From Sphingobacteriales bacterium 50-39 (lineage in GTDB: Bacteria; Bacteroidota; Bacteroidia; Chitinophagales; Chitinophagaceae): a stretch of DNA of 64,000 bases. The translations under genes were made by a program, and so were the position numbers. Positions 13,143 through 37,106 of the stretch are shown here, piece after piece; the first letter of the stretch is position 1; each line of letters opens with the position of its first letter. The notes under the pieces were generated by a model. The model saw only the letters and a program-made list of their open reading frames with translations. It was not told the DNA's origin and did no database searches. Location: assembly GCA_001898505.1 (NCBI GenBank), contig MKTZ01000021.1, positions 39,151 to 103,150 of the forward strand. Direction: 5' to 3'.

Positions 13143-13679
13143 TCACTCGAGATACTTCTCCTTTAGGATATTCAGATGATGCAGCTCATGTCCTGCCATA
13201 TGGTATAGCAGTGCCCGCGTGCTGTAAACATAATTATTGGCCGTTCCTTTTCTTAGCAGGTCTTCTTCCGAGAAGGATCTGTACAGGGAGAGTGTAGCCT
13301 TGCGGACCGTTTCGTATTCCTTCAAGATTGACTTGACGGTGCGGTCATTGGCTTTCGAGTAGGGAACGTAGTCTTTCTCTTCAAATCCCGGCAGGGGAGT
13401 AGTATCGCCACGGCCGATCCTGAGCGCACGGTAGGCATAGATCCGTTCGTCATCGATGATATGAACCAGCACTTCTTTTATTGTCCACTTGCCTGGTGCG
13501 TAGACATAGTCCCACTTGTTGGCGGGGATGCTGTTGACAAACTCCTCCGTCTTTTTTATCTGGTCCTTTAGATGCTCCAATATCCTTCCGTCATCGGCCG
13601 GCAATTTTATATACATGGCGGCGTAGTCGGGGAATTCTTCGGGCTGGGGCTTGGGAATATGTAAATTCTTTTTACTCAT
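13143..13679 (-). CDS. DinB/YfiT-like (DinB_2) family protein
   Basis: 178 aa with four-helix-bundle pattern and conserved His residues (HIIDDE...HELHH). Confidence 0.7.
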   Translation of the reverse strand: MSKKNLHIPKPQPEEFPDYAAMYIKLPADDGRILEHLKDQIKKTEEFVNSIPANKWDYVYAPGKWTIKEVLVHIIDDERIYAYRALRIGRGDTTPLPGFEEKDYVPYSKANDRTVKSILKEYETVRKATLSLYRSFSEEDLLRKGTANNYVYSTRALLYHMAGHELHHLNILKEKYLE

Positions 13680-21867: not shown

Positions 21868-22380
21868 ATGGAAAAAGAACTAACCAACGAGATAGAACAT
21901 ACGGTGGGCGAGCTGTTACGGGCCATCGACGTATTCGGACAGCCGGCATTTAATACGGCGCCGTTCGAAGGCAGCTGGACGCCTGGACAGGTGGTAGAGC
22001 ATATATATCTCTCCGCCTCGGGTATATTGAAGACAGTGGAAGGAAACACCGACGCCACGGAGCGTGATCCCGGCCAGATGGTGGCCCCGATGAAGGATGC
22101 TTTTTTGAACTTCTCCATCAAAATGCAATCGCCGGATTTTATCATTCCTTCCAATGAACCAAAGGATAAGTCCTTTATGATGCAATCGCTGAAAGATGCA
22201 TTCGCAGGACTTGCCCGGGTGGCGAGGTCCCAGGACCTTCTCGTCACCTGTCTGGATTTCGAGATGCCCACTGTGGGACACATGACGCGGCTGGAATATC
22301 TGTCGTTTGTGGTCGTGCATACCCAGCGGCATATCTGGCAGTTGAAGAAGATAGCGGTGATCATGGGGGCGACGGAGTAA
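21868..22380 (+). CDS. DinB_2 family protein
   Basis: 170 aa. Helical His-containing motifs (VVEHIYL...VVVHTQRHIWQ). Paralog-like to 13143-13679 and 23993-24475. Confidence 0.65.
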   Translation: MEKELTNEIEHTVGELLRAIDVFGQPAFNTAPFEGSWTPGQVVEHIYLSASGILKTVEGNTDATERDPGQMVAPMKDAFLNFSIKMQSPDFIIPSNEPKDKSFMMQSLKDAFAGLARVARSQDLLVTCLDFEMPTVGHMTRLEYLSFVVVHTQRHIWQLKKIAVIMGATE

Positions 22381-23992: not shown

Positions 23993-24475
23993 TTAGTTTT
24001 TCAGCAATATCAGCTGGCCGAGGTGATAAGAGATATGGATGGCCCGGCCGATGAGTACATTTAATCTGTTGCGATGCGGCTCCTTCTGAAAATCTTCTTC
24101 GGAGACGGACATGTGTCGCTGGAACCATTGCTCTTCTGTCAGGGTGGCAAGACGTTGTTCAAGGTGTGCATGTACTTCTTTCCAAAGCTCCCTTAATTGT
24201 GTTATGGAAGGGGTTTTCTTTCCTGAGCGGTCGGGGCTGGTGATATAGATCTCTTCCAGCTCGGGGTGAAGCTTTTCTCCTAATCCGAACAGGGGAACGA
24301 TGCCGTCGTGTACGGCAATAAGATGTCCGATCAGATAAGCTCCTGTGTTACGGCCGGGAGCGATCTCTTGTGACAGCTGTTCATCGGTGAGGGTGTTCAA
24401 CAGGCTGGTGACTCTTTTAAGCTGACCTTCCCAGGAGAGCAGGCCCATTTTTACAACAAGGGTTTGATGGTGCAT
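23993..24475 (-). CDS. DinB_2 family protein
   Basis: 160 aa. Conserved His pattern (IGHLIAVHDG...HISYHLGQL). Confidence 0.65.
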   Translation of the reverse strand: MHHQTLVVKMGLLSWEGQLKRVTSLLNTLTDEQLSQEIAPGRNTGAYLIGHLIAVHDGIVPLFGLGEKLHPELEEIYITSPDRSGKKTPSITQLRELWKEVHAHLEQRLATLTEEQWFQRHMSVSEEDFQKEPHRNRLNVLIGRAIHISYHLGQLILLKN

Positions 24476-25004: not shown

Positions 25005-25270
25005 AAGCGTAGATGCTTTTTAATTGATTGAGAAAAAAGAGTTTCCTCATGTCTGTCGTCGGCTGGAAGATGTTTTTGAAAAAAATATCTTTCTAAAAAG
25101 TTGGAGGTATCAGAGAAATTGTTGCATCTTTGCACTGTTAAAGAAATCTTAAATCAAATGCAACGCACATTCGTCATAGCAAAGTTAGATAATAGCCGGG
25201 AGATTGGGCTATATCCTGTGCGGGGCTTATTTTGTATATAATCTATTTAGAATTAAAACACTATAACGAA

Positions 25271-25296
25271 CCCCGCAAGAGATTGCGGGGTTTTTT
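25271..25296 (+). terminator. intrinsic terminator (no annotated upstream protein gene on this strand)
   Basis: ccccgcaa-gaga-ttgcgggg forms a perfect 8-bp GC-rich stem followed by tttttt. Confidence 0.55.
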
Positions 25297-25480
25297 GGTG
25301 CCCCAAAAAACTGTGTTTCATTCTATGCTCAACCATAGGACACGACGATATAACTGTTCTTGCGACGGATATCAGGCCAGTCAAAACTGGTTTAATACCC
25401 GAATGGAAGAGGTATGTCTGCGACGACCGGGAACGATATCATGGGGATTCGTGTAATGCGGATCTTGAAAAATGGTGGAA

Positions 25481-25508
25481 CCCGGTCAATGATGACCGGG
25501 TTTTTTTT
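25481..25508 (+). terminator. intrinsic terminator closing a ~200-nt non-coding stretch
   Basis: cccggtca-atga-tgaccggg forms a perfect 8-bp stem followed by tttttttt. Confidence 0.6.
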
Positions 25509-25527
25509 GTGGTGTGCCGGACACTTT

Positions 25528-25600
25528 GATCTGTTCGTCTAATGGCTGAGGACGCGGGGCTTTCTACCTCGTAATATGGGTTCGAATCCCATACAGATCA
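25528..25600 (+). tRNA. tRNA, anticodon TTC by position (Glu), atypical U37
   Basis: Perfect 7-bp acceptor (gatctgt/acagatc). D-stem gtct/ggac. Anticodon stem cgggg/cctcg with loop ctTTCta. T-arm atggg-ttcgaat-cccat. 73 nt. A pyrimidine at position 37 is unusual, so the isotype call is tentative. Confidence 0.65.
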
Positions 25601-25611
25601 CGTAGTTGTAT

Positions 25612-25683
25612 TGCGATCTGGTGTAAGGGTAACACGCCACTCTCATAAGGTGGAGGATTCCGGTTCGAATCTGGAGGTCGCAA
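25612..25683 (+). tRNA. tRNA with CAT anticodon (Met, initiator or Ile-lysidine not distinguishable by eye)
   Basis: Acceptor tgcgatc/ggtcgca (one GU pair). D-arm gtgt-aagggta-acac. Anticodon stem ccact/ggtgg with loop ctCATaa. T-arm tccgg-ttcgaat-ctgga. 72 nt. Confidence 0.8.
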
Positions 25684-25688
25684 CGTAA

Positions 25689-25760
25689 TAGTCAGTAGCT
25701 CAATGGCAGAGCGCCGGCCTGTTAAGTCGGTGGTTGAAGGTTCGAGTCTTTCTTCATCCG
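25689..25760 (+). tRNA. tRNA-like sequence with GTT (Asn) anticodon arm but unpaired acceptor stem (probable pseudo-tRNA or tRNA-like element)
   Basis: Good D-arm (gctc-aatggca-gagc). Good anticodon arm (ccggc-ctGTTaa-gtcgg). Good T-arm (gaagg-ttcgagt-ctttc). The flanking 7-mers tagtcag and ttcatcc cannot base-pair. Confidence 0.35.
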
Positions 25761-25786
25761 CAAATATTCGTGAGTGCGACGAAGAT

Positions 25787-25863
25787 GGTGTTCTGGCAGA
25801 GATGGTTCTATTGCACCGGTCTGAAATACCGGCTATTGGGGTTCGATTCCCCGGGCACCGCCA
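25787..25863 (+). tRNA. tRNA-like sequence with GAA (Phe) anticodon arm, degenerate D-arm and weak acceptor pairing (possible pseudo-tRNA)
   Basis: Anticodon arm ccggt-ctGAAat-accgg. T-arm tgggg-ttcgatt-ccccg. 3' end ggcaccg-c-ca. The D-arm is irregular and the acceptor pairs only through several GU wobbles. Confidence 0.35.
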
Positions 25864-25976: not shown

Positions 25977-27050
25977 ATGGACAACCAACAACTTTCAAAT
26001 GTCATCAATGCGAGTGCATTGTTTGACAGCTACCTTATGGATGGGAAGTCCTTGTATCTGCATTGTTTCAATGCGCTCCCCAATGTTAGCTATATAGGTA
26101 ACATCGATGGAGAAAAGGCATATAAGGCTTTTACTGCGCAATTCAAGGAGAATATTGCACGGATCTATCAATACAGGTGGTATGACAATAGGGACAAGGA
26201 ATTTCGCTTCTCGAACACATTCGTAGTAATGAAAAATAACTGCATTGTCGAGTTCGATGCCGGATACTGCGAAATGCTGCACGACGGGACGGTGGATGTA
26301 TTTATCGATGAGGTGGTTAAGAAAGTGCGTCATTTTAAGGAGAGGAACAAGCGAAAACCGCTGGAGATCAACTTGGTCGTCTCGCATAACGGGAGATTGT
26401 CCCTGAAAACTATGGAGGTCAAGCGTAACAGACTGGATATCGATCTGTACTATGAAGATGATTTCAAGGAGACGGATGCCGTGATAAGGAAGCGCTTGAA
26501 TAAAAAGAACGATAAGGGGATCGTGCTGCTGCATGGTATTCCCGGGTCGGGGAAGACGACGTACTTACGTTATCTCATCGGCAAGATCAGGAAGCGGGTA
26601 TTGTTCCTTTCTCCGTCCCTTGCGGGGAGCCTGACCAGCCCGGATTTTATCCAGCTATTGATGGACAATCCCAATACGGTGCTTGTCATCGAAGACGCGG
26701 AGAATGTGATCATGGACAGGCGGCATCATTCCGGGAGTTCCGTATCCAATCTGTTGAATGTGTCTGACGGGCTGCTGGCGGACTGTCTGAATATCCAGCT
26801 GATATGCACTTTCAATAGCGCCCTGTCGCTGGTGGACAGCGCGCTGATGCGTAAGGGCAGACTGATCGCTAAATACGAATTTGGCAAGCTTAGCATCGCC
26901 AAGGCGCAACGTCTGAGCAAACATCTGGGTTTGGAGACGAATATCGATAAACCTATGACCATTGCTGAAATAACCAATCCTCATGAAAAGGACCATTTGG
27001 AAGGCCGGGTAGAGATCATCGGGTTCAGGACAAGCGCAATGAAAAATTGA
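25977..27050 (+). CDS. AAA family ATPase (classic clade) with a ~180-aa N-terminal domain of unknown function
   Basis: Walker A (GIVLLHGIPGSGKTTYL), Walker B (TVLVIEDAENV), sensor-1 (ICTFNS) and SRH with Arg fingers (DSALMRKGRL). The stop overlaps or abuts the next ORF. Confidence 0.85.
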   Translation: MDNQQLSNVINASALFDSYLMDGKSLYLHCFNALPNVSYIGNIDGEKAYKAFTAQFKENIARIYQYRWYDNRDKEFRFSNTFVVMKNNCIVEFDAGYCEMLHDGTVDVFIDEVVKKVRHFKERNKRKPLEINLVVSHNGRLSLKTMEVKRNRLDIDLYYEDDFKETDAVIRKRLNKKNDKGIVLLHGIPGSGKTTYLRYLIGKIRKRVLFLSPSLAGSLTSPDFIQLLMDNPNTVLVIEDAENVIMDRRHHSGSSVSNLLNVSDGLLADCLNIQLICTFNSALSLVDSALMRKGRLIAKYEFGKLSIAKAQRLSKHLGLETNIDKPMTIAEITNPHEKDHLEGRVEIIGFRTSAMKN

Positions 27051-27070
27051 ATAGAGTAATAGCATGTGTT

Positions 27071-27559
27071 ATGGAACAGTTGCAACAGAAATGGAGGCGC
27101 CTCGACAGGTCGCTGGTTGAAAGGGATATCGAGGACGAGATCAGGGCAGCCCTGGTCAGGGAAAAGGAAGCAGGTCATGAGTTGAAGGTCTGCATCGGCA
27201 CGGACAGCCAGGTAAAGGGCACGGAGACGGAGTTCGCCACTGTCATCGTCTTTATCCGGAAAGGTAAGGGTGGATTTATGTACGTCAATAGCGAGATCTC
27301 CCGGCAGAAAATGAGCGTCAAAGAGAGGATGTTGAAGGAGGTTGCCAGGAGTATTGCAGTGGCGTATCCGTTGAGCCGGCTGTTCACTTTGTATGGAGTG
27401 GATATGGAAGTGCATGCGGATATCAACACCAATCCTGGATTTAAGAGCAACGACGCTTTGAAGGAGGCGATGGGGTATATCCTGGGAATGGGATTTTCTT
27501 TCCGGGCCAAGCCCGAGGCATTTGCCAGCTCCAGCTGTGCGAATAAGGTGGTGCAATGA
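27071..27559 (+). CDS. small protein with predicted RNase H-like fold (YkuK/DUF458-like), translationally coupled to the AAA ATPase
   Basis: 163 aa from the ATG at 27071; an in-frame TTG at 27047 overlaps the upstream stop. Alternating beta/alpha pattern with acidic residues at strand ends (KVCIGTDSQ, TVIVFIR, GVDMEVHADIN), as in RNase H-like nucleases. Fold assignment is inferred, not demonstrated. Confidence 0.5.
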   Translation: MEQLQQKWRRLDRSLVERDIEDEIRAALVREKEAGHELKVCIGTDSQVKGTETEFATVIVFIRKGKGGFMYVNSEISRQKMSVKERMLKEVARSIAVAYPLSRLFTLYGVDMEVHADINTNPGFKSNDALKEAMGYILGMGFSFRAKPEAFASSSCANKVVQ

Positions 27560-27562
27560 GAG

Positions 27563-28585
27563 CTATGCGTCGGCAGCGCTATACAGTTCATGCATAAGCC
27601 GTACCTTTTTCCGGATGGATCGTACAAGACGGGAAGGGGAGAGGACCTTCAATCCCTCCCCAAATCCCATCAGTTCGCGTTCCAGCTCGAAATTTGGGAT
27701 CACCTGAATGCTGAAATGCACACCGGTGGGTGTGGTCTCGATGACCTTTTGGGTGTGATGAATGGGTTTGGTCCGGATGTAGGGAGCATGATAGTGATTG
27801 GCCCAGAAGATGATCTCTATGGGCGCCTCGCCTATATTTCGAGTGACGCCTATGATGGAATGAAAATACGTATGTGGGTCAAAATCCTTTTGCCGGCGAT
27901 AAACTTCTCCAGGCCCCAAGGCTATATCCTGGATGCGATCCAGCGCAAAAGTGATGATATCGCGACCTGCCTGTAGCATACCAAGGACAAACCAGCGGTT
28001 GCGGTACTCCTTGAGCAAGTAGGGATAGAATATCAGGTCGCTTGGTTGGCGGGCTTTGAAGGATTGATAGGTTAGCCGGACGGTGGTGGAGGAAATAATG
28101 GCTTTATAAAGTATATCCAGCCATTGCATGCCGGTGAGCAGATCATTCTTTTCAAAGTCGATGACGAGGGGAGACTGTGACTGTTCGCTGTGTATCTGAT
28201 CTTCCAGCCGGCTGATCATTTCGGACATGCCTGTCAGATGACTGAAGCCTTTGAATTGTTGTAGCAGATGGGATACTTCCTGTAGCACACCCAGGTCCTG
28301 GGAGCTGAGCGGGATATTGGTAATAGAATAGGATGGGTCCTCGTAGCTGTAATATTTCTTGTCGCGTACGATGATGGGGGCATTATAGCCCAGCTTGTCG
28401 CTACGCATGGCGTTGAGATCCATACGGATGGTCCGGAGGCTCACCCCGCGGCGGATGCCTTCGTATTCGTACAAGGCCTCATTACAGGCTTCGATAAGGT
28501 CTTCGATCGTCCATTTCCGGCGGCGGTTTTGCAGGCATTTATCGATGGTGCGATAACGGATAAGGGCATTGCGGTTGACGGGCAT
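27563..28585 (-). CDS. WYL-domain transcriptional regulator (YafY/HTH-WYL-WCX family)
   Basis: 340 aa. N-terminal wHTH (WTIEDLIEACNEALYEYEG...SLRTIRMDL). Central WYL domain hallmark (YPYLLKEYRNRWFVLGMLQAGRDIITFALDRIQDI). Divergent from rsr. Confidence 0.8.
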   Translation of the reverse strand: MPVNRNALIRYRTIDKCLQNRRRKWTIEDLIEACNEALYEYEGIRRGVSLRTIRMDLNAMRSDKLGYNAPIIVRDKKYYSYEDPSYSITNIPLSSQDLGVLQEVSHLLQQFKGFSHLTGMSEMISRLEDQIHSEQSQSPLVIDFEKNDLLTGMQWLDILYKAIISSTTVRLTYQSFKARQPSDLIFYPYLLKEYRNRWFVLGMLQAGRDIITFALDRIQDIALGPGEVYRRQKDFDPHTYFHSIIGVTRNIGEAPIEIIFWANHYHAPYIRTKPIHHTQKVIETTPTGVHFSIQVIPNFELERELMGFGEGLKVLSPSRLVRSIRKKVRLMHELYSAADA

Positions 28586-28624
28586 CAGAAAGAAATTTTT
28601 ACAAAAAAAAGGAAAAATATTTTA

Positions 28625-28645
28625 CTGTGCGAATAGATTGCACAG
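28625..28645. promoter_or_regulatory. inverted-repeat operator candidate in the WYL-regulator/rsr divergent intergenic region
   Basis: CTGTGC-gaatagatt-GCACAG: perfect 6-bp arms with a 9-nt spacer, centred ~88 nt upstream of the rsr ATG and ~50 nt upstream of the regulator ATG. Confidence 0.3.
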
Positions 28646-28722
28646 ATGGGTCCTAACCTTGTATTGTCAACGGACAGACATGAACAAAAAGCCCGGAGAC
28701 AGACAAAAACAGGAGGTATAAC

Positions 28723-30237
28723 ATGAAATTCAATTTAAAAGCAAAAGTCAACAAGGTCCTGAACCATGAAGGCGAAAAAGCTTATGCGCTGACGCCTGAG
28801 ATAGAGCTGTATACGCTGGTAGCTGTTGCAACGCTGGACGACCAGTTCTACGAGAAGGGCGAAGACAAGCTGAACAGGCTTCGGCAACTGATCGGCAAGA
28901 ACGATGCAGGTTTCGTGGCAAAGCTGGCTGTCTATGCGCGCGAGCAGATGTATCTGCGCTCGATACCCCTGGTGTTGGCTGTAGAGCTGGGGAAGGCGCA
29001 TAGTGGGGATGGCCTGGTGGGACGGCTGGTTGCCCGTGTGATACAGCGTGCTGATGAGATAACTGAGCTACTTGGATATTACCAGCTGGCGAATGGTAGG
29101 ACAGAGGTAAAGAAATTGAATAAGCTGAGCAAGCAGATGCAAAAGGGATTGGCGGACGCATTTAATAAATTTGACGAATATCAATTCGCCAAGTACAATA
29201 AGGATACGCAGATAAAGACTCGTGATGCTCTGTTCCTGGTACACCCAAAGGCAAAGGACGAAGCACAGCAAGCGCTGTTCGACAAGATCGTAAAGGATGA
29301 ACTGATGACACCCTATACATGGGAAGTGGAGCTGAGCGCCCTGGGGCAGCAGCCATATAAAACATCGGAAGAACGTGCAGACGCATTCCGGGCAAAATGG
29401 GAGGAGCTGATCTTTAGCAATAAGCTGGGATATATGGCCACTTTGCGTAACCTCCGAAACTTTCTGGAAGCTGGCATCAGCAATGACGCATTGAATAAGG
29501 TATGCAAATACCTGTCCGACGAAAAGGCGGTGGCATCGAGCCGGCAGTTACCCTTCCGGTACCTCAGCGCCTATCGGGAGCTGAAAGAAGTGAAGGATGG
29601 ACGGGTAGGCGTTGTCCTGGATGCGCTGGAGTCGGCGATCCTTTATAGCGTGGCCAATATTCCTGGTTATGATATGAACACACGGGTGGTGGTTGCCGCG
29701 GATGTGAGCGGAAGCATGCAGACGTATATCAGCCCGAAAAGCAAGGTGCAGAATTTTGATATTGGGCTATTACTGGCCATGCTGATGCGCTACCGGTGCA
29801 AGAATGTTATCACAGGGATGTTTGGTAATACCTGGAAAGCGATCCAGGTGCCGAAGGTAAATATCCTGGCTAACGTGGAGACATTTCGGAGCAGGGAGGG
29901 AGAAGTGGGTTATTCCACCAATGGGTTCCTGGTAATACAGGATCTGCTTGACAGACGGCAGGTGGTAGATAAAATAATGATGTTTACCGACTGTCAGTTA
30001 TGGAATAGCCAGGGTAATGGCATCAATATAGCCTCCTTGTGGAAAAGCTATAAAAGGCTGGCTCCGAATGCAAAGCTTTATTTGTTCGACCTGGCCGGAT
30101 ATGGTAACACTCCGCTGAAAGTAGATCAAGATGATGTATACCTGATAGCGGGATGGAGTGATAAGATCTTCCATGTCCTGCAGGCAATCGAAGAGGGGGG
30201 AAGTGCGGTGGAGCTGATCAATGCAGTACCCCTATAA
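28723..30237 (+). CDS. rsr: Ro60-related protein Rsr (TROVE domain plus C-terminal vWA/MIDAS domain)
   Basis: 504 aa. TROVE-domain N-terminal two-thirds. C-terminal vWA with MIDAS DxSxS motif (AADVSGSM). Preceded by a rare strong AGGAGG SD-like element. Followed by tRNA-like RNA modules, as in known rsr loci. Confidence 0.9.
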   Translation: MKFNLKAKVNKVLNHEGEKAYALTPEIELYTLVAVATLDDQFYEKGEDKLNRLRQLIGKNDAGFVAKLAVYAREQMYLRSIPLVLAVELGKAHSGDGLVGRLVARVIQRADEITELLGYYQLANGRTEVKKLNKLSKQMQKGLADAFNKFDEYQFAKYNKDTQIKTRDALFLVHPKAKDEAQQALFDKIVKDELMTPYTWEVELSALGQQPYKTSEERADAFRAKWEELIFSNKLGYMATLRNLRNFLEAGISNDALNKVCKYLSDEKAVASSRQLPFRYLSAYRELKEVKDGRVGVVLDALESAILYSVANIPGYDMNTRVVVAADVSGSMQTYISPKSKVQNFDIGLLLAMLMRYRCKNVITGMFGNTWKAIQVPKVNILANVETFRSREGEVGYSTNGFLVIQDLLDRRQVVDKIMMFTDCQLWNSQGNGINIASLWKSYKRLAPNAKLYLFDLAGYGNTPLKVDQDDVYLIAGWSDKIFHVLQAIEEGGSAVELINAVPL

Positions 30238-30284
30238 TCTATGACAGCCTACGGTTCGCTCAAAGGACAGACATTTTAAAATAG

Positions 30285-30422
30285 TGAATGATGCCGTAGG
30301 ATAGGGTTACTTCGGTAGAGCATGCTGCTGTGCAGCAAGGTATAGGTTCAAGTCCTGTCGTTGCCGAAAGGCAATGTAGCTTAGTTTTAAAGTCCCTACC
30401 GTCTGTCGCTCATTCATTTTTA
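30285..30422 (+). ncRNA. Y RNA-like tRNA-mimic unit A (YrlA-type candidate)
   Basis: Conserved 5' motif gccgtaggatagggttacttcg. D-loop-like ggtagagc and T-arm-like aggttcaagtcct. GNRA hairpin ttgcc-gaaa-ggcaa. Ends pair (tgaatga...gtagg with cctac...tcattca). Run of five T after the closing stem. Confidence 0.45.
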
Positions 30423-30440
30423 AGACATTTTACAGGTGTC

Positions 30441-30600
30441 GTAGATAAGAGTTACTTCGTCATAACGAGTGGGTCGTGGGTTCGAATCCCACCGGGTCCT
30501 CTAGGCGGAACCATAGGAAATGGTTCCTTCGATGAGTGGACATGGGCCCGTAGCTCAGCTGGTAGAGCAACTAATACTCTTTTCGCCTTGTTACCCTGTA
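30441..30600 (+). ncRNA. Y RNA-like tRNA-mimic unit B (permuted T-arm / acceptor-hairpin / D-arm)
   Basis: 5' motif gtcgtagataagagttacttcg. Perfect T-arm gtggg-ttcgaat-cccac. Then cgggtcc pairs across an inserted hairpin (ggaacca...tggttcc) with gggcccg, followed by ta-gctcagctggtagagc (D-arm). No anticodon arm. Confidence 0.5.
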
Positions 30601-30622
30601 AATACTTTATTCGATGATTTTG

Positions 30623-30720
30623 GATGATGCCGTAAAGCAGGGTTACTTCGTAATTCAATTGGTTAGAAAGCTTCGCTTCTGCGAAGAAGCGCGGGTTCGA
30701 ATCCCGCCCAGTCCCTGGTT
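30623..30720 (+). ncRNA. Y RNA-like tRNA-mimic unit C
   Basis: 5' motif gccgtaaagcagggttacttcg (third copy). D-arm-like taattcaattggttagaa. Non-canonical anticodon-like hairpin. Perfect T-arm gcggg-ttcgaat-cccgc. No proper acceptor pairing. Confidence 0.45.
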
Positions 30721-30900
30721 GTCTGTTGCTTATTCAATTTCAAAACCGCTGGAAACGGTTCGTCCGACAGGACAAAAATCATTCCCTCACGGGAAAACTC
30801 GGTATATCGCCGGATTGTAAGGGTTTCAAAAATGCCCGGCAGTGCAGGTGTAGTAACTCCCTGTATCCTGTATGCAATTTGGCCTATATCTACCAAAGGG

Positions 30901-31090
30901 AACTGTGTGTCGAAGGTTCGACTCCTTCTCTCTCCGACATTTTAAGGAGAGGTAGCTCAGTTGGAAGAGCAACAGTCTGGAAGCATGGGTTCGAATCCCA
31001 TTCCGCCTGTCACGCGGATAGCTCAGATGGCTAGAGCACTACGCTGATAACGTAGAGGAACGGCAGTACACCGCTGCCCAAAAAAATGGT
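30901..31090 (+). ncRNA. two tandem circularly permuted tRNA-like modules (units D and E) ending in a hairpin and A-tract
   Basis: Unit D: T-arm gaagg-ttcgact-ccttc; acceptor hairpin tctctcc-N10-ggagagg; ta; D-arm gctcagttggaagagc; flanks actgt/acagt pair. Unit E: T-arm atggg-ttcgaat-cccat; hairpin tccgc-ctgtcac-gcgga; ta; D-arm gctcagatggctagagc; hairpin ctacg-ctgataa-cgtag; hairpin ggcag-tacaccg-ctgcc. Reading them as ordinary tRNAs fails because the acceptor strands do not match. Confidence 0.5.
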
Positions 31091-31435
31091 GACCAGAAAT
31101 AAAGCCAGGTCTATTCGCCGGCCGTCGCGTAGAAAGTCCGTAAGGACCGACTATTCACAGGCAATCCGGCATGAGCCTGCAGCCTGCTGTAAGAGGCAGC
31201 AAGATCTTTTCCATCACCGGCGACGCTCGCCATGGCCGTCCATAAGGATCACGCCCTCAGGGGCGCACATCTGAAGGATGCCTTCATGGATGCAGCCGGA
31301 AAAAGAAAGGACAAACTGTATCCAAGACAGGTTCCGCGCATGCGGGATGGAGAATAGCATCTGGCTTTTAAAAAGAAACAACGGGTCGTTGCCCGATATT
31401 TTAACAAGAACAACTAACAGATAAAACCTAAGACG

Positions 31436-32566
31436 ATGAAAAAGGTAATGATCAACGCCTATCAAATAGGCCTGTTGTACAAGCACGGGACTTACGTGCG
31501 TATGTTGGGGAAGGGCACTTATTGGGCCTTGCCCGGTGATAAGGTGGAGGTGCATGAGTTTACTAAACAGTTTACTCCCACCTGCGAGCTGAATATACTT
31601 TTAAAGGACCGCGAGCTGGCAGAACGTCTGCACGTGGTGGATGTAAAAGATAACGAGCTGGTGCTCCTTTACGAGAACGGCCTGTTGAAGCAGGCGCTCG
31701 GACCCGGCAGATATGCCTACTGGAAAGAGATCATAGTATATGGATTTGCCCGGGTGGATATCGGCAAGATCGAGATCACGGAAAACCTGGACCGGGTTAC
31801 GCTCCTGAGCAAGGTGGTGGCTCCTTATGTCCGGACCTATACGGTAGAAAGCTATGAAAAGGGCTTGCTTTTCGTAGACGGTAATTACGTAAAGACGCTG
31901 GAAAGTGGTGTATATTACTGGTGGAAGAACAGCATCGCCATCAACGTGGGTAAGATCGATACGCGTCAGCTGCAGCTGGAGATCAACGGGCAGGAAATAC
32001 TCACCCGGGATAAAGCGGCCCTGCGGGTCAACGCCTGGGCGCAGTACCGGATAACGGATATAGAAAAGGCGCTGTTGCAGAACAAGGAATACGAAAAGCA
32101 GCTGTACGTGGCATTTCAGCTGGCCCTCCGTGAGTATATCGGCAGATTGAGCTTTGACGAGCTGCTGGAAAAGAAGGAGACGGCGTTGCATGAACGTACC
32201 GGCGACGGCCAGGCACCAGCGACCGTGCTGGAAAAAGTACAGACCATGGCCGATGCGCTGGGCATACAAGTTGCCGGCTTTGGTATACGTGATATCGTGC
32301 TCCCCGGAGATGTGAAGGATATCATGAACCAGGTACTGGTGGCGGAAAAGAAGGCACAAGCCAATGTTATCCTTCGTAGGGAAGAAACGGCCAGCACCCG
32401 TAACCTGCTGAATATTGCCAAGCTCATGGAAGACAACCCCATGCTGTTCCGGCTAAAGGAAATGGAATACGTGGAAAAGATCGCAGAAAAAGTCAGCAGC
32501 ATCAGTGTCAACGGCAATGGTGTCCTGATCGACCAGTTGCGGCAGCTGTTCACGAGTCCTAAATAG
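31436..32566 (+). CDS. SPFH/band-7 (stomatin/flotillin-like) domain protein lacking an N-terminal TM anchor
   Basis: 376 aa. SPFH core motifs (ILTRDKAALRVNAWAQYRITD...ETASTRNLLNIAKL) and C-terminal coiled coil. No hydrophobic N-terminal segment. Stop is 4 nt before the rtcB ATG. Confidence 0.7.
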   Translation: MKKVMINAYQIGLLYKHGTYVRMLGKGTYWALPGDKVEVHEFTKQFTPTCELNILLKDRELAERLHVVDVKDNELVLLYENGLLKQALGPGRYAYWKEIIVYGFARVDIGKIEITENLDRVTLLSKVVAPYVRTYTVESYEKGLLFVDGNYVKTLESGVYYWWKNSIAINVGKIDTRQLQLEINGQEILTRDKAALRVNAWAQYRITDIEKALLQNKEYEKQLYVAFQLALREYIGRLSFDELLEKKETALHERTGDGQAPATVLEKVQTMADALGIQVAGFGIRDIVLPGDVKDIMNQVLVAEKKAQANVILRREETASTRNLLNIAKLMEDNPMLFRLKEMEYVEKIAEKVSSISVNGNGVLIDQLRQLFTSPK

Positions 32567-32569
32567 ACA

Positions 32570-34063
32570 ATGGGCGGCGACCTGCGTGTCGCTGCCCTCA
32601 AAAAAAATAAAATGGGAAAGTTAAAATTAAGAGGAAAAGATTTGCGGGCCATCGGCTACCCCGAGGGACCGGTGATCAGCATTGCCATGAATATCATGGA
32701 AAAGAATTACAAGTTTACAGAACAGGAGGATGTGATGAATTTATTGAAGCAAATACTGACCTCCCCGGTGGAATATGCCAATGATGCTGTGTTAGGTTTG
32801 ATAGCTCAGCAATTGATACCAAAGAAGGAGATAGAAGGGGCGGAAATCTCGCTGAACAATACGGGAATTTCGTTCAATATTTTTGGAGGGGACCAGATCG
32901 AGGAAGGGGCGACCCATCAAATGTACCAGGCGGCTAAGCTACCTATAGCTGTGGCGGGGGCTCTGATGCCGGATGCGCATGCGGGATATGGACTTCCTAT
33001 CGGAGGTGTATTGGCTACGGAGAATGCAGTGATCCCGTATGGAGTAGGGGTGGACATCGGCTGCCGGATGTGTCTGTCGGTGTTTGACATCGACCCGAAA
33101 GAACTGACACAACGGGATCATTATTTTACGCGCGAGCTGAATGAAGCCACTCTGTTTGGTGCTGGAAGACAGTTCGACGAGAGCACTCCGCACGAGGTAT
33201 TAGACCGGAAGGAATTCGACGAGATACCTATCCTGAAAGCCCTGCAGGGGCGGGCAGCCCGGCAGCTGGGTTCATCGGGCTCCGGTAATCACTTTGTCGA
33301 ATTCGGGAAGGTGGAGATCACGGAGAAGGATGCGATATTGGGTCTCGAGCCCGGTGAATATCTTGGTTTGTTGTCTCATTCCGGAAGCCGGGCTCTGGGT
33401 GCAAATATTGCCGGCCATTATACGAAGATTGCCAAACAGAAAAGACGGCTCCCCGGCGAGGCGAACAACCTGGCATGGCTGGATCTTACTGAAGAGGAAG
33501 GGATCGAATACTGGCTGGCGATGAACCTGGCGGGTGACTATGCATCTGCCTGTCACGAGGTCATTCATAATAAGATAGCCCGGCAATTGGGAAGGCAACC
33601 GCTGAAAAGAGTAGAAAACCATCACAATTTTGCCTGGAAGGAAATACATGAAGGAGGAGAGGTCATTGTCCACCGGAAGGGGGCGACCCCTGCGGGGAAG
33701 GATGTGCTGGGTATTATTCCCGGATCGATGACGGCGCCCGGATACATCGTAAAAGGTAAGGGACAAGAAGCCTCTTTATCTTCCGCCAGCCATGGAGCCG
33801 GCAGGAAGATGAGTCGTACGGCTGCCTTGAATGCCTTGACGCAGGACCTCTTAAAAAAGACCCTGCAGCAGCATGGAGTAAAGCTCCTGGGCGGAGGGCT
33901 GGATGAAGCGCCGCAGGCGTATAAGGACATTGAAGCGGTGATGCAGTCCCAGCGGCAGCTCATCGATGTGGTGGGAAAGTTTACGCCTCGCATCGTAAAG
34001 ATGGATGGCGCTGTGCCGAAACAATGGAAAAAACCCAAGAAGGAGGGACAGGACGAATCCTAG
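32570..34063 (+). CDS. rtcB: RNA-splicing ligase RtcB (3'-phosphate/5'-hydroxyl RNA ligase) with N-terminal extension
   Basis: 497 aa. Metal-binding and GMP-histidine motifs (DAHAGYG, GSMTAPGYIVKGKG, SASHGAGR, NHHNF). An alternative start is MGKLKL at 32612. Confidence 0.9.
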   Translation: MGGDLRVAALKKNKMGKLKLRGKDLRAIGYPEGPVISIAMNIMEKNYKFTEQEDVMNLLKQILTSPVEYANDAVLGLIAQQLIPKKEIEGAEISLNNTGISFNIFGGDQIEEGATHQMYQAAKLPIAVAGALMPDAHAGYGLPIGGVLATENAVIPYGVGVDIGCRMCLSVFDIDPKELTQRDHYFTRELNEATLFGAGRQFDESTPHEVLDRKEFDEIPILKALQGRAARQLGSSGSGNHFVEFGKVEITEKDAILGLEPGEYLGLLSHSGSRALGANIAGHYTKIAKQKRRLPGEANNLAWLDLTEEEGIEYWLAMNLAGDYASACHEVIHNKIARQLGRQPLKRVENHHNFAWKEIHEGGEVIVHRKGATPAGKDVLGIIPGSMTAPGYIVKGKGQEASLSSASHGAGRKMSRTAALNALTQDLLKKTLQQHGVKLLGGGLDEAPQAYKDIEAVMQSQRQLIDVVGKFTPRIVKMDGAVPKQWKKPKKEGQDES

Positions 34064-34073
34064 ATTCGTCGTC

Positions 34074-34183
34074 TGTAACCGAGCCTGCGAAGGTTACGAC
34101 CGAGGTAACCGAGGCGGGTCCAACAGTGTTGGAACCAACGAAGGTTATGAGCGAAGCTCCGTGTCGAAGCAGGTCCGACGAAG
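34074..34183. repeat. ~100-nt intergenic repeat element, copy 1 (immediately 3' of rtcB)
   Basis: Shares cgaaggttacgaccg (15/15) and ccgtgtcgaagcag with the segment at 59366-59455. Also shares gtaaccgag and cgacgaa blocks. Contains the hairpin ggttac-gaccgag-gtaacc. Confidence 0.45.
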
Positions 34184-34211
34184 GGCCGCCCGTATCAGGC
34201 GGCCTTTTTTT
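34184..34211 (+). terminator. intrinsic terminator of the rsr-rtcB transcription unit
   Basis: ggccgcc-cgtatca-ggcggcc forms a 7-bp GC stem followed by ttttttt. Confidence 0.6.
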
Positions 34212-35917: not shown

Positions 35918-36532
35918 TCAAAAGGGTCCTGGAGGTGGATCGCCATTTTTTCTGATATTGTTCACTCTGTTGGCAATGTTCCGGATGGGAGACAGCACCT
36001 GCCGGGAGAACAGGAGCCCGATGCTGAATAGCACGATGATGGAGAGGATACTCGATGTGATCAGTATTTTGGAAAGGCTTGTCAGAAAATTCTGTGCATA
36101 GCTGTGGACGGCTGTAACGATGATAAGGTACTGCTGCTGTCCGGTGGTGTGGACGATGCCGGCAAAGAACTGGAAATTATGACGGGCTATGGCCTTTCCA
36201 TTTTGTTGGGCATCGTCAAAAAATGATGCGCCGGCGGTCTTGTACAGAGGAGTGTTTTTTATCCTGTCGAGGGTATCTGTGCGAATGATAAATTCCTCTT
36301 CTTCAGGCAGCAGCTGCACATGCTGTTTGCGCAGCTGGTCCAGCGCCTCCTGGCTTTCCTGATTGACGTCGAAATTTATTTTGGATGCGATGACGGCCCG
36401 TAACTCCAGTCGGGCGTAAAAATCCTGGAATGCCTTTTCGTTGGCGAAATAATATACGGCTGTACTGAGCAACAGCACCACCGAAAGGCAGAGGAGGGTA
36501 AATAACAAAGTAATCTTTAGCTGTATCTTCAT
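35918..36532 (-). pseudogene. truncated, frameshifted sensor histidine kinase (paralog of 62401-63780)
   Basis: The 204-aa ORF covers only TM1-sensor-TM2 and the start of HAMP, aligning to residues ~1-200 of the intact kinase. The HAMP continuation (TAICFTIERDLKQMISD...) appears in the +1 frame and stops after ~45 codons. No HisKA or HATPase_c region follows. Confidence 0.5.
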
Positions 36533-36536
36533 CGGG

Positions 36537-37106
36537 CTATTCTTCTTTTAAGATATACCCCATCCCTACCACGGTGTGAATGATACGGGGGGCGCCGGCC
36601 GTCTCCAGCTTCTTACGTAAATAGTTGATATATACGTCCACGGACTTGGTATTCATATTGAAGTCGTACCCCCAGACCTTTTCGAGTATATCCATCCGGG
36701 AAAGCACTTTGCGGGGATTCCGCATCAGATATTCCAGCAGTCTGAACTCCGTTGCGGTGAGTTCGATGGTCCTGCCATCGCGACGGGCATTCTTTTCGTC
36801 GAGATTTAATATGAGGTTGGAGAATACGAGCACATTGCCTTTGTCCTGTGCGGGTCCGCCGGCAGGAGCGGCGGGATGCGGTGTTATGGGTTGGCCGGTG
36901 ACAGCGCCCCTTCGCAACAATGAACGTACCCGGGCCAACAGCTCCGCTATCTTGAACGGCTTGGTAAGGTAGTCATCCGCGCCGGAGTCCAGTCCCATCA
37001 CGATATTGTCCACGGACCCAAGGGCGGTCAGCATCAGTATGGGTGTTTCTATACCCTGTTGCCGGGTCTTCCGGCAAATATCCATGCCATTGCCCCCGGG
37101 GAGCAT
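36537..37106 (-). pseudogene. OmpR-family response regulator with a disrupted receiver N-terminus (paralog of 61672-62364)
   Basis: The ORF begins MLPGGNGMDICRK, which corresponds to LPLMNGYDLARH of the intact paralog. The segment that would hold the phospho-acceptor Asp is missing or out of frame. Upstream receiver-like codons (LTPEDERHEQ ~ LVEDEKKIAE) lie in another frame. The winged-helix DNA-binding domain is intact. Confidence 0.45.

Follow-up and report, generated by a model that had tools for sequence, protein, structure and literature searches.

In Salmonella Typhimurium, the Ro60 orthologue Rsr, Y RNAs and the RNA ligase RtcB are encoded on a single transcript (rsr-yrlBA-rtcBA) that faces the gene for a divergent, ligand-sensing regulator, the CARF-AAA+ sigma-54 activator RtcR, and one of the Y RNAs, YrlA, contains a tRNA-like domain. 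Here we describe a related locus, occupying about 25.1 to 34.2 kb of a 64,000-nucleotide stretch of DNA (hereafter, the window) from Sphingobacteriales bacterium 50-39 (contig MKTZ01000021.1, positions 39,151 to 103,150), an uncultured Chitinophagaceae bacterium whose nearest named relative is Flavitalea sp. BT771. We read this locus as a chromosomal, inducible response island for tRNA or rRNA damage, a reading to which we give a probability of roughly 0.7 and within which the regulation, ligand, ribonucleoprotein formation and repair function are all predicted from sequence.

The window has in common with Salmonella Rsr, Y RNAs and RtcB on what appears to be one transcript, a divergent and putatively ligand-sensing regulator, and a YrlA-type tRNA-like domain. 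The differences are considerable, however: the regulator is a winged helix-turn-helix (wHTH)-WYL-WCX protein with a palindrome in a sigma-A-type promoter, RtcA is missing, there are three Y RNAs with three tRNA permutations, a gene for an SPFH protein with its own RNA precedes rtcB, and a tRNA array, an AAA ATPase gene and a DUF458 gene are attached. The window Rsr also resembles the Ro60 of Thermus phage phiLo more closely than it does the Rsr of enterobacteria or Deinococcus.

Other described systems share different parts of the locus. [quoted passage not shown] The window resembles these Band-7 systems in having a soluble SPFH gene directly upstream of rtcB with a conserved tRNA-like RNA before it. 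It differs from them in carrying the Rsr/Y and SPFH/tRNA-like modules serially in one operon and in having an SPFH RNA that is a composite of ~300-650 nt rather than a simple tRNA; going by secondary descriptions of the b7a-tRNA of Burroughs & Aravind, the two RNAs probably correspond.

In Anabaena PCC 7120, the TrcR regulon comprises a tRNA L-array, rtcB, the AAA ATPase all0263 and the slipin alr0740, which are co-repressed and are induced by translational stress (PMC8421152, PMC10272220). By annotation, the combination of a supernumerary tRNA array, RtcB, an SPFH-family protein and an AAA ATPase under one factor is the same, but the Anabaena genes are dispersed and controlled by a ribbon-helix-helix repressor at direct-repeat sites, whereas those of the window are clustered and have a WYL factor and a palindrome. 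The wHTH-WYL-WCX architecture is that of the activators PafBC and DriD and the repressors CapW and BrxR, each with an operator in its own upstream region and a stress or conflict operon; the window protein is only 11-17% identical to these in sequence and its target would be an RNA-repair operon in the Bacteroidota.

Finally, Ro60 genes are also found in phages, as in the Ro60-Yrl1/2 system of phiLo, which provides the closest solved Ro60, and the Rsr-YrlA systems of mycobacteriophages with their tRNA clusters. The Y-like RNAs of phiLo have a stem-bulge-stem form with a CGAA-type motif and lie beside the Ro60 gene, whilst two Bacteroidota phage contigs examined here carry Rsr, the window-type CGUA..UACUUCG motif and tRNA arrays. 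Unlike these phage loci, the window locus is chromosomal and coupled to RtcB, SPFH and WYL, all of which the phage loci lack.

Layout of the locus and scope of the comparison

The locus comprises two transcription units on the plus strand, with the regulator gene on the minus strand between them.

25.1-27.6 kb, plus strand: unit 1, in which a leader precedes four supernumerary genes for tRNAs or tRNA-like RNAs, followed by those for an AAA+ ATPase and a YkuK/DUF458 RNase H-like protein
28.65-34.2 kb, plus strand: unit 2, with Rsr/Ro60 and three Y RNAs, then a large tRNA-like RNA linked to SPFH, then the soluble SPFH protein itself and RtcB

Domains were assigned by Pfam profile search of the window open reading frames (ORFs), supplemented by NCBIfam, PADLOC and PDB searches, and tRNAs by ARAGORN and Rfam. 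For comparison, 80 rsr loci were fetched from Bacteroidota genomes (L001-L080; some counts are given over 81), together with two phage contigs from IMG/VR (L081, L082) and five islands without Rsr (L093-L097), of which L095-L097 were reached via WYL homologues. The top named homologues come from Flavitalea, Ferruginibacter and Puia, and the flanks of the island are ordinary Chitinophagaceae chromosome.

The original prediction, of a WYL-regulated Rsr-Y RNA-SPFH-RtcB locus at 27563-34211, had its parts in the right places, with profile searches recovering WYL and WCX, TROVE and vWA, SPFH and RtcB, but its left edge was drawn too narrowly: the conserved island begins at about 25120 or 25528. That no RtcR, RtcA or archease is present holds for the ~50 window ORFs scanned, among which there is likewise no Sigma54_activat or RtcR-like ORF. 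The same scan found no integrase, transposase or phage genes, and on the absence of the first two we rejected a mobile-element origin for the window copy. Generic WYL models aside, PADLOC matched no defence system.

We take unit 2 to be a single operon because its gaps hold conserved structured RNA, its internal hairpins are weak and it ends at one strong terminator. The Y RNAs are separated from each other by ~20 nt and the third of them from the SPFH RNA by ~30 nt, and the only terminator-like hairpins inside the unit are weak ones of 5-6 bp (31185-31201 and 31382-31395). As predicted, a strong terminator closes the unit, an 11-bp stem followed by a T-run that is the strongest in a 10-kb scan.

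34180-34208, plus strand: intrinsic terminator closing the rsr-rtcB unit

The 117 nt between the rtcB stop and this terminator (34064-34179) contain repeated GGUUAC/GUAACC hairpins and fold, together with the terminator, at -61.5 kcal/mol; the stretch is not present in the related island L094.

The WYL regulator and its predicted operator

27563-28585, minus strand: wHTH-WYL-WCX transcription factor (Pfam WYL 2e-13, WCX 1.3e-9; PADLOC WYL 2.6e-24)
28625-28645, either strand: palindromic operator CTGTGCGA-ATAGA-TTGCACAG, 21 bp, consensus TGTGCAA-N5-TTGCACA
28654-28661, plus strand: candidate Bacteroidota -7 promoter box TAACCTTG, from alignment by eye of 21 intergenic regions

A WYL-domain regulator divergent from rsr had been proposed, and both the domains and the arrangement are borne out: 24 of the 80 rsr-anchored Bacteroidota loci carry the gene, at 48-73% identity and in most cases divergent from rsr. 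The palindrome goes with it, being found upstream of rsr in 22/23 loci with the WYL gene and 14/53 without (odds ratio 61, Fisher p = 1.4e-8). In the distant families (Rapidithrix, Rikenellaceae and Flammeovirgaceae, with WYL proteins ~50% identical), the two arms change symmetrically to TGCGCAA/TTGCGCA. The operator is the sole exact copy within the window, where a search for a second found none, and the tRNA/AAA/DUF458 unit is thus not obviously under WYL control here. Elsewhere, extra copies precede the SPFH RNA (L021, L041, L077) and, in six loci, a small T-arm RNA between WYL and rsr.

The -7 box of the relatives reads nAnnTTTG and lies exactly 8 nt past the operator in the 21 aligned intergenic regions, a sequence that we take to fit the Bacteroidetes -7 consensus TAnnTTTG. 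No TTTG -33 element is found at the proper distance in these 21 regions, from which it would appear that the operator takes the place of the -33 element.

Two further observations concern this region in the relatives. A conserved RNA of ~250 nt (GCAUAAAAGGAAGUGCUGCGG..CACCGAAA..AGUAGGGAAGCG) lies between WYL and rsr in L001 (6650-6935), L005, L006, L009, L021 and L066; L012 and L020 have it too. It has a T-arm end and its own WYL operator and promoter, is absent from the window and has no Rfam match at gathering threshold. Separately, an operator-like palindrome (TGTGCAATTGATCTGCACA type) is seen within the AAA ATPase coding sequence of L002 (5090), L018 (5590), L026 (11054), L039 (10655) and L040 (10764), the window copy having more than two mismatches; this may reflect coding conservation or an internal binding site.

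An AlphaFold2 (AF2) model of the protein (mean predicted local distance difference test score (pLDDT) 64, predicted template-modelling score (pTM) 0.33) retrieves WYL transcription factors only in a Foldseek search of the PDB: PafBC (1.8e-10), DriD (3.9e-10), CapW (2e-6), BrxR (4e-6) and WYL1. No Pfam HTH family matches the N-terminus but the model has a three-helix N-terminal bundle, and the Foldseek alignments to WYL factors run the full length, pointing with moderate model confidence to an N-terminal winged HTH. At a pTM of 0.33 the model was too uncertain for ligand residues to be read from it, and that line was dropped. NCBIfam provides no equivalog for the protein.

The fold matches raise the possibility that the protein senses DNA damage in the form of single-stranded DNA (ssDNA), as PafBC, DriD and CapW do, and that the operon belongs to an SOS-independent DNA-damage regulon. 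PafBC and DriD are indeed the best matches, ahead of CapW and BrxR, and the -33 element gives way to an operator whose spacing does not vary, much as in PafBC/DriD-type activation. DinB_2 genes recur in the islands, and the Salmonella rsr-rtcBA operon is induced during the SOS response (PMC9879122). On the other hand, the regulated genes all act on RNA and sequence does not discriminate between ssDNA and single-stranded RNA (ssRNA) binding. The WYL1 protein of Cas13d systems binds ssRNA. For RNA-repair contexts, Aravind and co-workers propose that the ligands of WYL and CARF factors are RNAs ending in a cyclic phosphate, and that these factors regulate RNA repair (PMC9503650). We regard a DNA-damage sensor as an alternative of rather low probability.

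As for the direction of control, the fixed spacing, the lack of a -33 box and the fold search, in which PafBC and DriD come out closer, incline us slightly towards ligand-dependent activation, although repression of the CapW or BrxR kind is equally compatible. WYL control of the operon, its ligand and its direction are all predictions.

Rsr and its Y RNAs

28711-28716, plus strand: AGGAGG, resembling a Shine-Dalgarno sequence, 6 nt ahead of the ATG of rsr
28723-30237, plus strand: rsr, Ro60 orthologue with TROVE ring and vWA/MIDAS (Pfam TROVE 7.7e-29)
30286-30415, plus strand: Y RNA 1, closing stem with GCCGUA internal loop and UUACUUCG motif; tRNA-like domain opened in the D-loop
30431-30600, plus strand: Y RNA 2, of the YrlA type; T arm, then an acceptor-like stem with 45-nt insert, then D arm, closed by the Y stem
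30621-30736, plus strand: Y RNA 3, tRNA-like domain in normal order (D, anticodon-like, T arm), the Y stem replacing the acceptor end

The first gene of unit 2 encodes the predicted combination of TROVE and vWA domains, with the MIDAS residues intact (D327-V-S-G-S331 as DxSxS, a Thr within 396-GYSTNG-401 and an Asp within 421-FTDCQ-425). Pfam vWA_Ro60 scores 24.2 bits, just below its cutoff of 27.7, and close homologues carry a precomputed PF25045 match. The alignment with the Ro60 of Thermus phage phiLo (9KOP/9L5Y) spans the full length of the protein (E = 1e-27), that with D. radiodurans Rsr is marginal (E = 0.08), and the protein does not reach the NCBIfam equivalog for Rsr (RNA-bind_Rsr, NF041674; 30.1 bits against a cutoff of 900). 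These three results place it in a different, phage-related clade of Ro60. The AGGAGG element before rsr, which the original prediction had picked out as rare, is unique to this gene among the 53 predicted in the window and is kept before rsr in the relatives.

Between rsr and the SPFH gene lies a 1.2-kb gap in which a Y-RNA-like array had been proposed. Three Y RNAs supported by covariation are present there, 49-500 nt downstream of rsr and so inside the 4 kb allowed for YrlA; the fourth RNA of the gap is a separate element that goes with SPFH. Each Y module opens with one of the window's three copies of a sequence motif (see below), and its 5' and 3' ends pair in a long stem of two parts on either side of a CGUA internal loop, the architecture of a Y RNA. 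What differs is the tRNA-like body. In Y1 the body runs from the D-stem's 3' half through an anticodon-like hairpin, the T arm and a closed acceptor hairpin to the D-stem's 5' half. Y2 has the permuted domain of YrlA (T arm, closed acceptor stem, D arm, long closing stem), with its acceptor closed and its junction on the anticodon side, whilst Y1 and Y3 are permuted otherwise.

Alignments of the three with their counterparts in the relatives show extensive compensatory change. In the Y1 alignment (A1, 23 sequences), 24/32 pairs have a compensatory change, 92.9% of cells are paired compared with 39-44% when the partners are slid, none of 500 shuffles is as good, and the long-range GAGC/GCUC D-stem is 97.6% paired. 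Figures for the others are 26/36 pairs compensatory and 96.8% paired for Y2 (A3, 21 sequences) and 22/30 compensatory for Y3 (A2, 12 sequences). Because conservation across the gap is of this RNA type, ORFs at 30330-30617, 30726-31034 and 31086-31274 were rejected as genes. Y1 to Y3 are bona fide structured Y-type RNAs that fall into orthologous classes kept across families.

The motif itself was searched for as G[CU]CGUA-N(3-12)-G(U/A)UACUUCG, tolerating one mismatch in the second block, and is found in 76 of the 80 loci, with a median of four and up to eight copies per locus. There are 300 copies on the rsr strand, three on the opposite strand (a count that takes in the window) and none in shuffles, and the motif is absent from the Rsr-less islands L093-L097. 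In the form G(C/U)CGUA(G/A) it is universal in the window clade, differing from the GNCGAAN0-1G of YrlA by U for A at one position; the published Ro-binding motifs GNCGAAG and CGAA resemble the CGUA loop (PMC4201824, PMC12135203). Binding of the Y RNAs by Rsr is a prediction from adjacency and from co-occurrence of the motif with the gene.

Rfam sees little of this. Across the gap it gives YrlA matches of 39.4, 31.5 and 30.7 bits, all under the gathering score of 69, and weak tRNA matches; the best of the YrlA matches (E = 7e-7) is to Y2, and Y3 scores 34.7 bits as a tRNA at 30650-30708. No YrlA, only tRNA, is called at the gathering threshold in the window or in eight related loci. Since the YrlA matches are all sub-threshold, Rfam is unsuitable for calling these Y RNAs.

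The weak scores, taken at face value, would fit an array of decayed tRNA genes or processing punctuation that does not bind Rsr: one tRNA of the neighbouring array is degenerate, and tandem tRNAs can mimic YrlA, as pointed out by Chen et al. (PMC4201824). Such decay would not be expected to leave a 5' motif that is conserved, strand-specific and linked to Rsr to the extent just described, nor heavy compensatory change in the long closing stems, nor orthologous Y types kept across families, nor a motif missing wherever Rsr is missing. The covariation effectively refutes this explanation, which we consider highly improbable.

The SPFH protein, its RNA and RtcB

30776-31435, plus strand: SPFH-associated structured RNA and leader, core 30904-31085, conserved upstream of SPFH
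31436-32566, plus strand: soluble SPFH/Band-7 protein (Pfam Band_7 5e-25)
32570-34063, plus strand: RtcB 3'-phosphate/5'-OH RNA ligase (Pfam 6e-83)

The core of the SPFH RNA contains T arms, closed acceptor-like hairpins and D arms, two of each, along with a single anticodon-like arm, and is followed by a long leader. Sub-threshold Rfam matches to YrlA and tRNA fall at 30904-31078, and 31/50 pairs show compensatory change (alignment A5). The RNA accompanies SPFH in ten rsr loci and also in three islands without rsr (L093, L094, L095). No transmembrane segment was found in the SPFH protein.

Alignment of the window RtcB, residue by residue, with that of P. horikoshii (4DWR, 1UC2) confirms the full catalytic motif set that had been claimed for it: all metal ligands match (Asp and Cys of 161-VDIGC and the His residues in GSGNHF, SHSGSR and NHHNF), as does the GMP-accepting His of SHGAGR. 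RtcB is present in 42 of 81 loci.

A modular island

Three loci share one chromosomal site, with hyp155 on the left and an alpha/beta hydrolase gene on the right, and differ in what that site contains.

L094: tRNA x9, DUF458, SPFH RNA, SPFH, RtcB
L095 (Puia dinghuensis): DUF458 remnant, AAA, WYL / operator / SPFH RNA, SPFH, RtcB
Window: tRNA x4, AAA, DUF458, WYL / operator / Rsr, Y1-3, SPFH RNA, SPFH, RtcB

L095 is syntenic with the window on both flanks and has neither rsr nor Y RNAs, its WYL gene and operator directly facing the SPFH RNA. Absent as they are from the syntenic L094 and L095, rsr and the Y RNAs form an optional cassette. In L094 there are only ~20 nt between DUF458 and the SPFH RNA; with gaps of ~20 nt there and ~30 nt in the window, SPFH-rtcB has no room for a promoter of its own and must be read through from upstream.

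The other two WYL-anchored loci, L096 and L097, are RtcB/RlaP or RNA-ligase/DUF458/tRNA-array islands. That all three WYL loci reached in this way are repair islands without rsr indicates that WYL is the regulator of the RNA-repair island and not of rsr specifically. The proposal that this is a Ro/RtcB response to RNA damage under a WYL gate holds up and is strengthened by WYL-operator co-occurrence and the divergent arrangement, both conserved among Bacteroidota rsr neighbourhoods, and by the WYL-anchored islands; it needs amending in that WYL is tied to the RtcB/SPFH island generally, with rsr and the Y RNAs an option.

The separability of the cassette from the SPFH-RtcB core in L094 and L095 speaks for another explanation, that Rsr and the Y RNAs act in RNA degradation or quality control, in a RYPER-like complex of Ro, Y RNA and polynucleotide phosphorylase (PNPase), and merely share an operon with an independent SPFH/RtcB repair module. 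The phiLo Ro60, the closest solved homologue, forms Ro-Yrl-PNPase complexes (PMC12135203) and D. radiodurans Rsr tethers PNPase (PMC4201824). However, in roughly half of the loci rsr is next to RtcB or a different RNA ligase, and the cassette lies inside the repair operon rather than beside it, making such a degradative role, in our judgement, distinctly unlikely. The islands of the relatives hold further RNA-repair genes, for an RlaP nucleotidyltransferase, a 2H phosphoesterase, a PHA02142-type RNA ligase and a calcineurin-like phosphoesterase, as well as DinB_2.

In the phage contigs L081 and L082, the Rsr proteins are 56-62% identical to that of the window and are accompanied by seven and four copies of the Y motif and 11 and 27 tRNAs, respectively, with no RtcB, WYL, SPFH, AAA or DUF458 on either contig. 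Motifs of the form CGUAGAUAA..UACUUC lie beside more distant phage Rsr genes.

A number of side observations were made in the window and its relatives. DinB_2 paralogues lie in the window at 13143-13679 (minus strand), 21868-22380 (plus strand) and 23993-24475 (minus strand), and inside the rsr islands of L001, L004, L026, L033, L039 and L048; their recurrence may reflect a functional link or merely an abundant family. A conserved protein of ~250 amino acids (cluster 'X248'), without a Pfam, NCBIfam or PADLOC match, is encoded between AAA/DUF458 and RtcB in 15 rsr-anchored loci (for example, L025:12823-13719) and probably in L097, and a 750-amino acid ORF without domains (L096:3741-5993) stands where rsr would be expected. 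In the window, 35918-37106 (minus strand) encodes an OmpR-type response regulator lacking the first ~50 receiver residues, adjacent to a 204-amino acid ORF like the N-terminal fragment of a sensor kinase; the two may be a disrupted two-component system.

The tRNA array and its associated genes

25120-25527, plus strand: tRNA-array leader with promoter-like -7 box CATCTTTG (~25124-25131) and two conserved terminator-like hairpins
25528-25601, plus strand: tRNA-Glu(UUC), first in the mini-array (ARAGORN; Rfam tRNA 55.5 bits)
25612-25684, plus strand: tRNA with CAU anticodon, Met or Ile2 (ARAGORN; Rfam tRNA 56.4 bits)
25694-25754, plus strand: degenerate tRNA-Asn(GUU)-like sequence with broken acceptor stem (Rfam tRNA 45 bits, model positions 6-65 only; uncalled by ARAGORN)
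25786-25862, plus strand: tRNA-Phe(GAA), CCA encoded (ARAGORN; Rfam 45.6 bits)
25977-27050, plus strand: AAA+ ATPase (Pfam AAA 1.1e-9; Walker A GIPGSGKT at 187, Walker B VLVIED at 235)
27047-27559, plus strand: YkuK/DUF458 RNase H-like protein (Pfam RNaseH_like PF04308 1.7e-35)

Across the 80 loci, ARAGORN finds 448 tRNAs, 447 of them on the rsr strand. The arrays of the relatives hold up to 16 tRNAs in a recurring order (Glu-Asp-Gln-His-Arg-Ile-Leu-Met-Val-Lys-Asn-Tyr-Ser-Cys-Phe-Trp), with which the three tRNAs and one degenerate member of the window (Glu..Met..Asn..Phe) agree. The window array is not the long run of supernumerary tRNAs that defines a tRNA L-array, and its order marks it as a reduced remnant of the relatives' array. 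As a side observation, the arrays of rsr loci often include tRNA-Ile(UAU), unusual for bacteria.

One of the leader hairpins lies at 25270-25297 and the other at 25477-25504 (CCCGGTC..GACCGGG), the latter followed by a T-run (T8) to ~25511, some 20 nt before the first tRNA. Both are conserved in sequence, not in structure alone, in L094, L093, L006, L007 and L019, and the promoter-like block in the first four of these. Rfam returns no family for the leader, only terminator-like noise. It looks like a conditional terminator or attenuator that would silence the array. A different element, GCAGAAGGAGGA..CCCCGUGAGAUGCAGCGGGG, in which AGGAGG is followed by a hairpin, precedes the arrays of L001, L002, L004, L008, L011, L019 and L093 but not that of the window.

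Array composition is biased towards Phe(GAA), Lys(UUU), Gln(UUG), His, Arg(ACG), Asn, Asp, Pro and Glu, with nearly no Ala, Gly, Thr or Val. Many of the favoured tRNAs are classic targets of anticodon nucleases. This enrichment invites the suggestion that the RNAs of the locus serve mainly as decoys or sponges and spare parts against anticodon nucleases (toxins or phage defence), with Rsr and SPFH merely stabilising them, and the phage contigs, with their Rsr, Y motif and tRNA arrays but no RtcB, would fit. A sponge role has been proposed for the operonic tRNAs of Anabaena (PMC8421152). In most Y domains, however, there is no canonical 7-nt anticodon loop, and an RtcB with an intact active site is predicted to be co-transcribed with them here and is present in 42 of 81 loci; we think it unlikely that decoys are the main purpose.

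The N-terminal ~160 amino acids of the AAA ATPase are uncharacterised and its nearest PDB entry is BCS1 (6e-8). The gene is found in 30/81 rsr loci and in L093, L095 and L096, and that for DUF458 in 23/81, in both cases always within the island and at varying positions. DUF458 follows tRNA arrays in L001, L002, L006, L007, L009, L015, L093, L094, L096 and L097. As its homologues are 161 amino acids long, the true start of the window protein is probably the ATG at 27074. The YkuK/DUF458 family is listed as uncharacterised (PMC3985635); the window protein has no sequence match in the PDB, and NCBIfam has no equivalog for it or for the AAA protein.

A model for the locus

The domain identities, catalytic residues, RNA covariation, operator conservation and WYL co-occurrence, synteny and modularity are established computationally. 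In the model that we favour, unit 2 would be read as one long transcript, from the promoter abutting the 21-bp palindrome to the strong terminator. A wHTH-WYL-WCX dimer would bind the palindrome, in the place of a -33 element, and would switch unit 2, and probably its own gene as well, on binding damage-derived single-stranded nucleic acid, for which tRNA or rRNA fragments or ssDNA are candidates. The Y RNAs would be excised and bind the Rsr ring through their conserved stem and its G(C/U)CGUA internal loop, their tRNA-shaped domains bringing tRNA-handling enzymes or broken tRNAs to the complex, and SPFH with its own tRNA-like RNA would provide a second scaffold. RtcB would then seal breaks with 2',3'-cyclic-phosphate (or 3'-phosphate) and 5'-OH ends. 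The array would supply spare copies of tRNAs often hit by nucleases, to which the rest of the adjacent unit would add an ATPase and an RNase H-like nuclease.

This model matches the proposal, described in the preprint cited above, that Rsr/Y RNA and Band-7/tRNA-like RNA are alternative RtcB cofactors, the suggestion that repair is regulated by WYL and CARF factors responding to the ends of damaged RNA, and the Anabaena regulon, defined by experiment and induced by translational stress. It also overlaps with the ssDNA-sensing, decoy and degradation explanations.

Several points count against it. The nearest structural relatives of the regulator (PafBC, DriD, CapW) sense ssDNA rather than RNA, and the AF2 model through which they were identified is only moderately confident. 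Of the 76 informative rsr loci, 39 lack both the WYL gene and the operator, and 14 (mostly Chryseobacterium) have the operator but lack the gene within a distance of 7 kb. Control by WYL is thus only one of several options, although in the Chryseobacterium exceptions the regulator may be encoded elsewhere. Neither an RtcA nor an archease partner accompanies RtcB. Rsr falls far under its NCBIfam equivalog cutoff (30 versus 900 bits), the Y RNAs below the Rfam YrlA gathering score, and their presumed Ro-binding motif reads CGUA where the published one is CGAA. The window array, being small and having one degenerate member, may be decaying.

A bolder and more speculative version of the model, as a whole doubtful on present evidence, would extend it to an entire Ro60 clade of Bacteroidota and phages. 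Here, at least five Y RNA classes would be built on one Ro-binding stem (CGUA loop and UUACUUCG), with the tRNA body opened at the anticodon end, in the D-loop or at the acceptor end, each class showing another side of the tRNA and so recruiting or decoying a different tRNA-acting enzyme. Together with the SPFH-RNA scaffold, RtcB and spare tRNAs, and deployed by a WYL sensor of damaged RNA, these would make up a programmable response to tRNA damage, more than a plain ligase operon.

Significance

The general architecture of the locus is not unprecedented in the literature. The component families and the pairwise links Rsr-Y RNA-RtcB and Band-7-tRNA-like-RtcB are already published, as, going by secondary citations, is the tie between WYL factors and RNA repair. 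New relative to the accessible literature are an operator that is now defined and that co-varies with the regulator, the tracking of the RtcB island by WYL independently of rsr, a set of Y RNA classes that Rfam overlooks and that combine three tRNA permutations with a single Ro-binding stem, the placing of the two cofactor modules in series, the linkage of DUF458, AAA ATPase and tRNA array, and the natural series of loci with and without the cassette, with the modular history that it implies.

These findings speak to two open issues: the role of bacterial Ro60 and Y RNAs beside RtcB, and the signal for RNA repair outside the RtcR paradigm. The analysis also flags Y RNA families missed by the current Rfam model, and connects tRNA arrays with an AAA ATPase and with the RNase H-like YkuK/DUF458 family, itself uncharacterised. 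Taken together, the locus and its ~100 relatives form a compact and genetically separable system, with variants with and without rsr and Y RNAs at the same site, a defined operator, a small soluble regulator and three differing tRNA mimics, in which the ligand of the WYL protein (RNA versus DNA), ligation assisted by Ro and Y RNA, and the role of SPFH with its RNA all become tractable questions.

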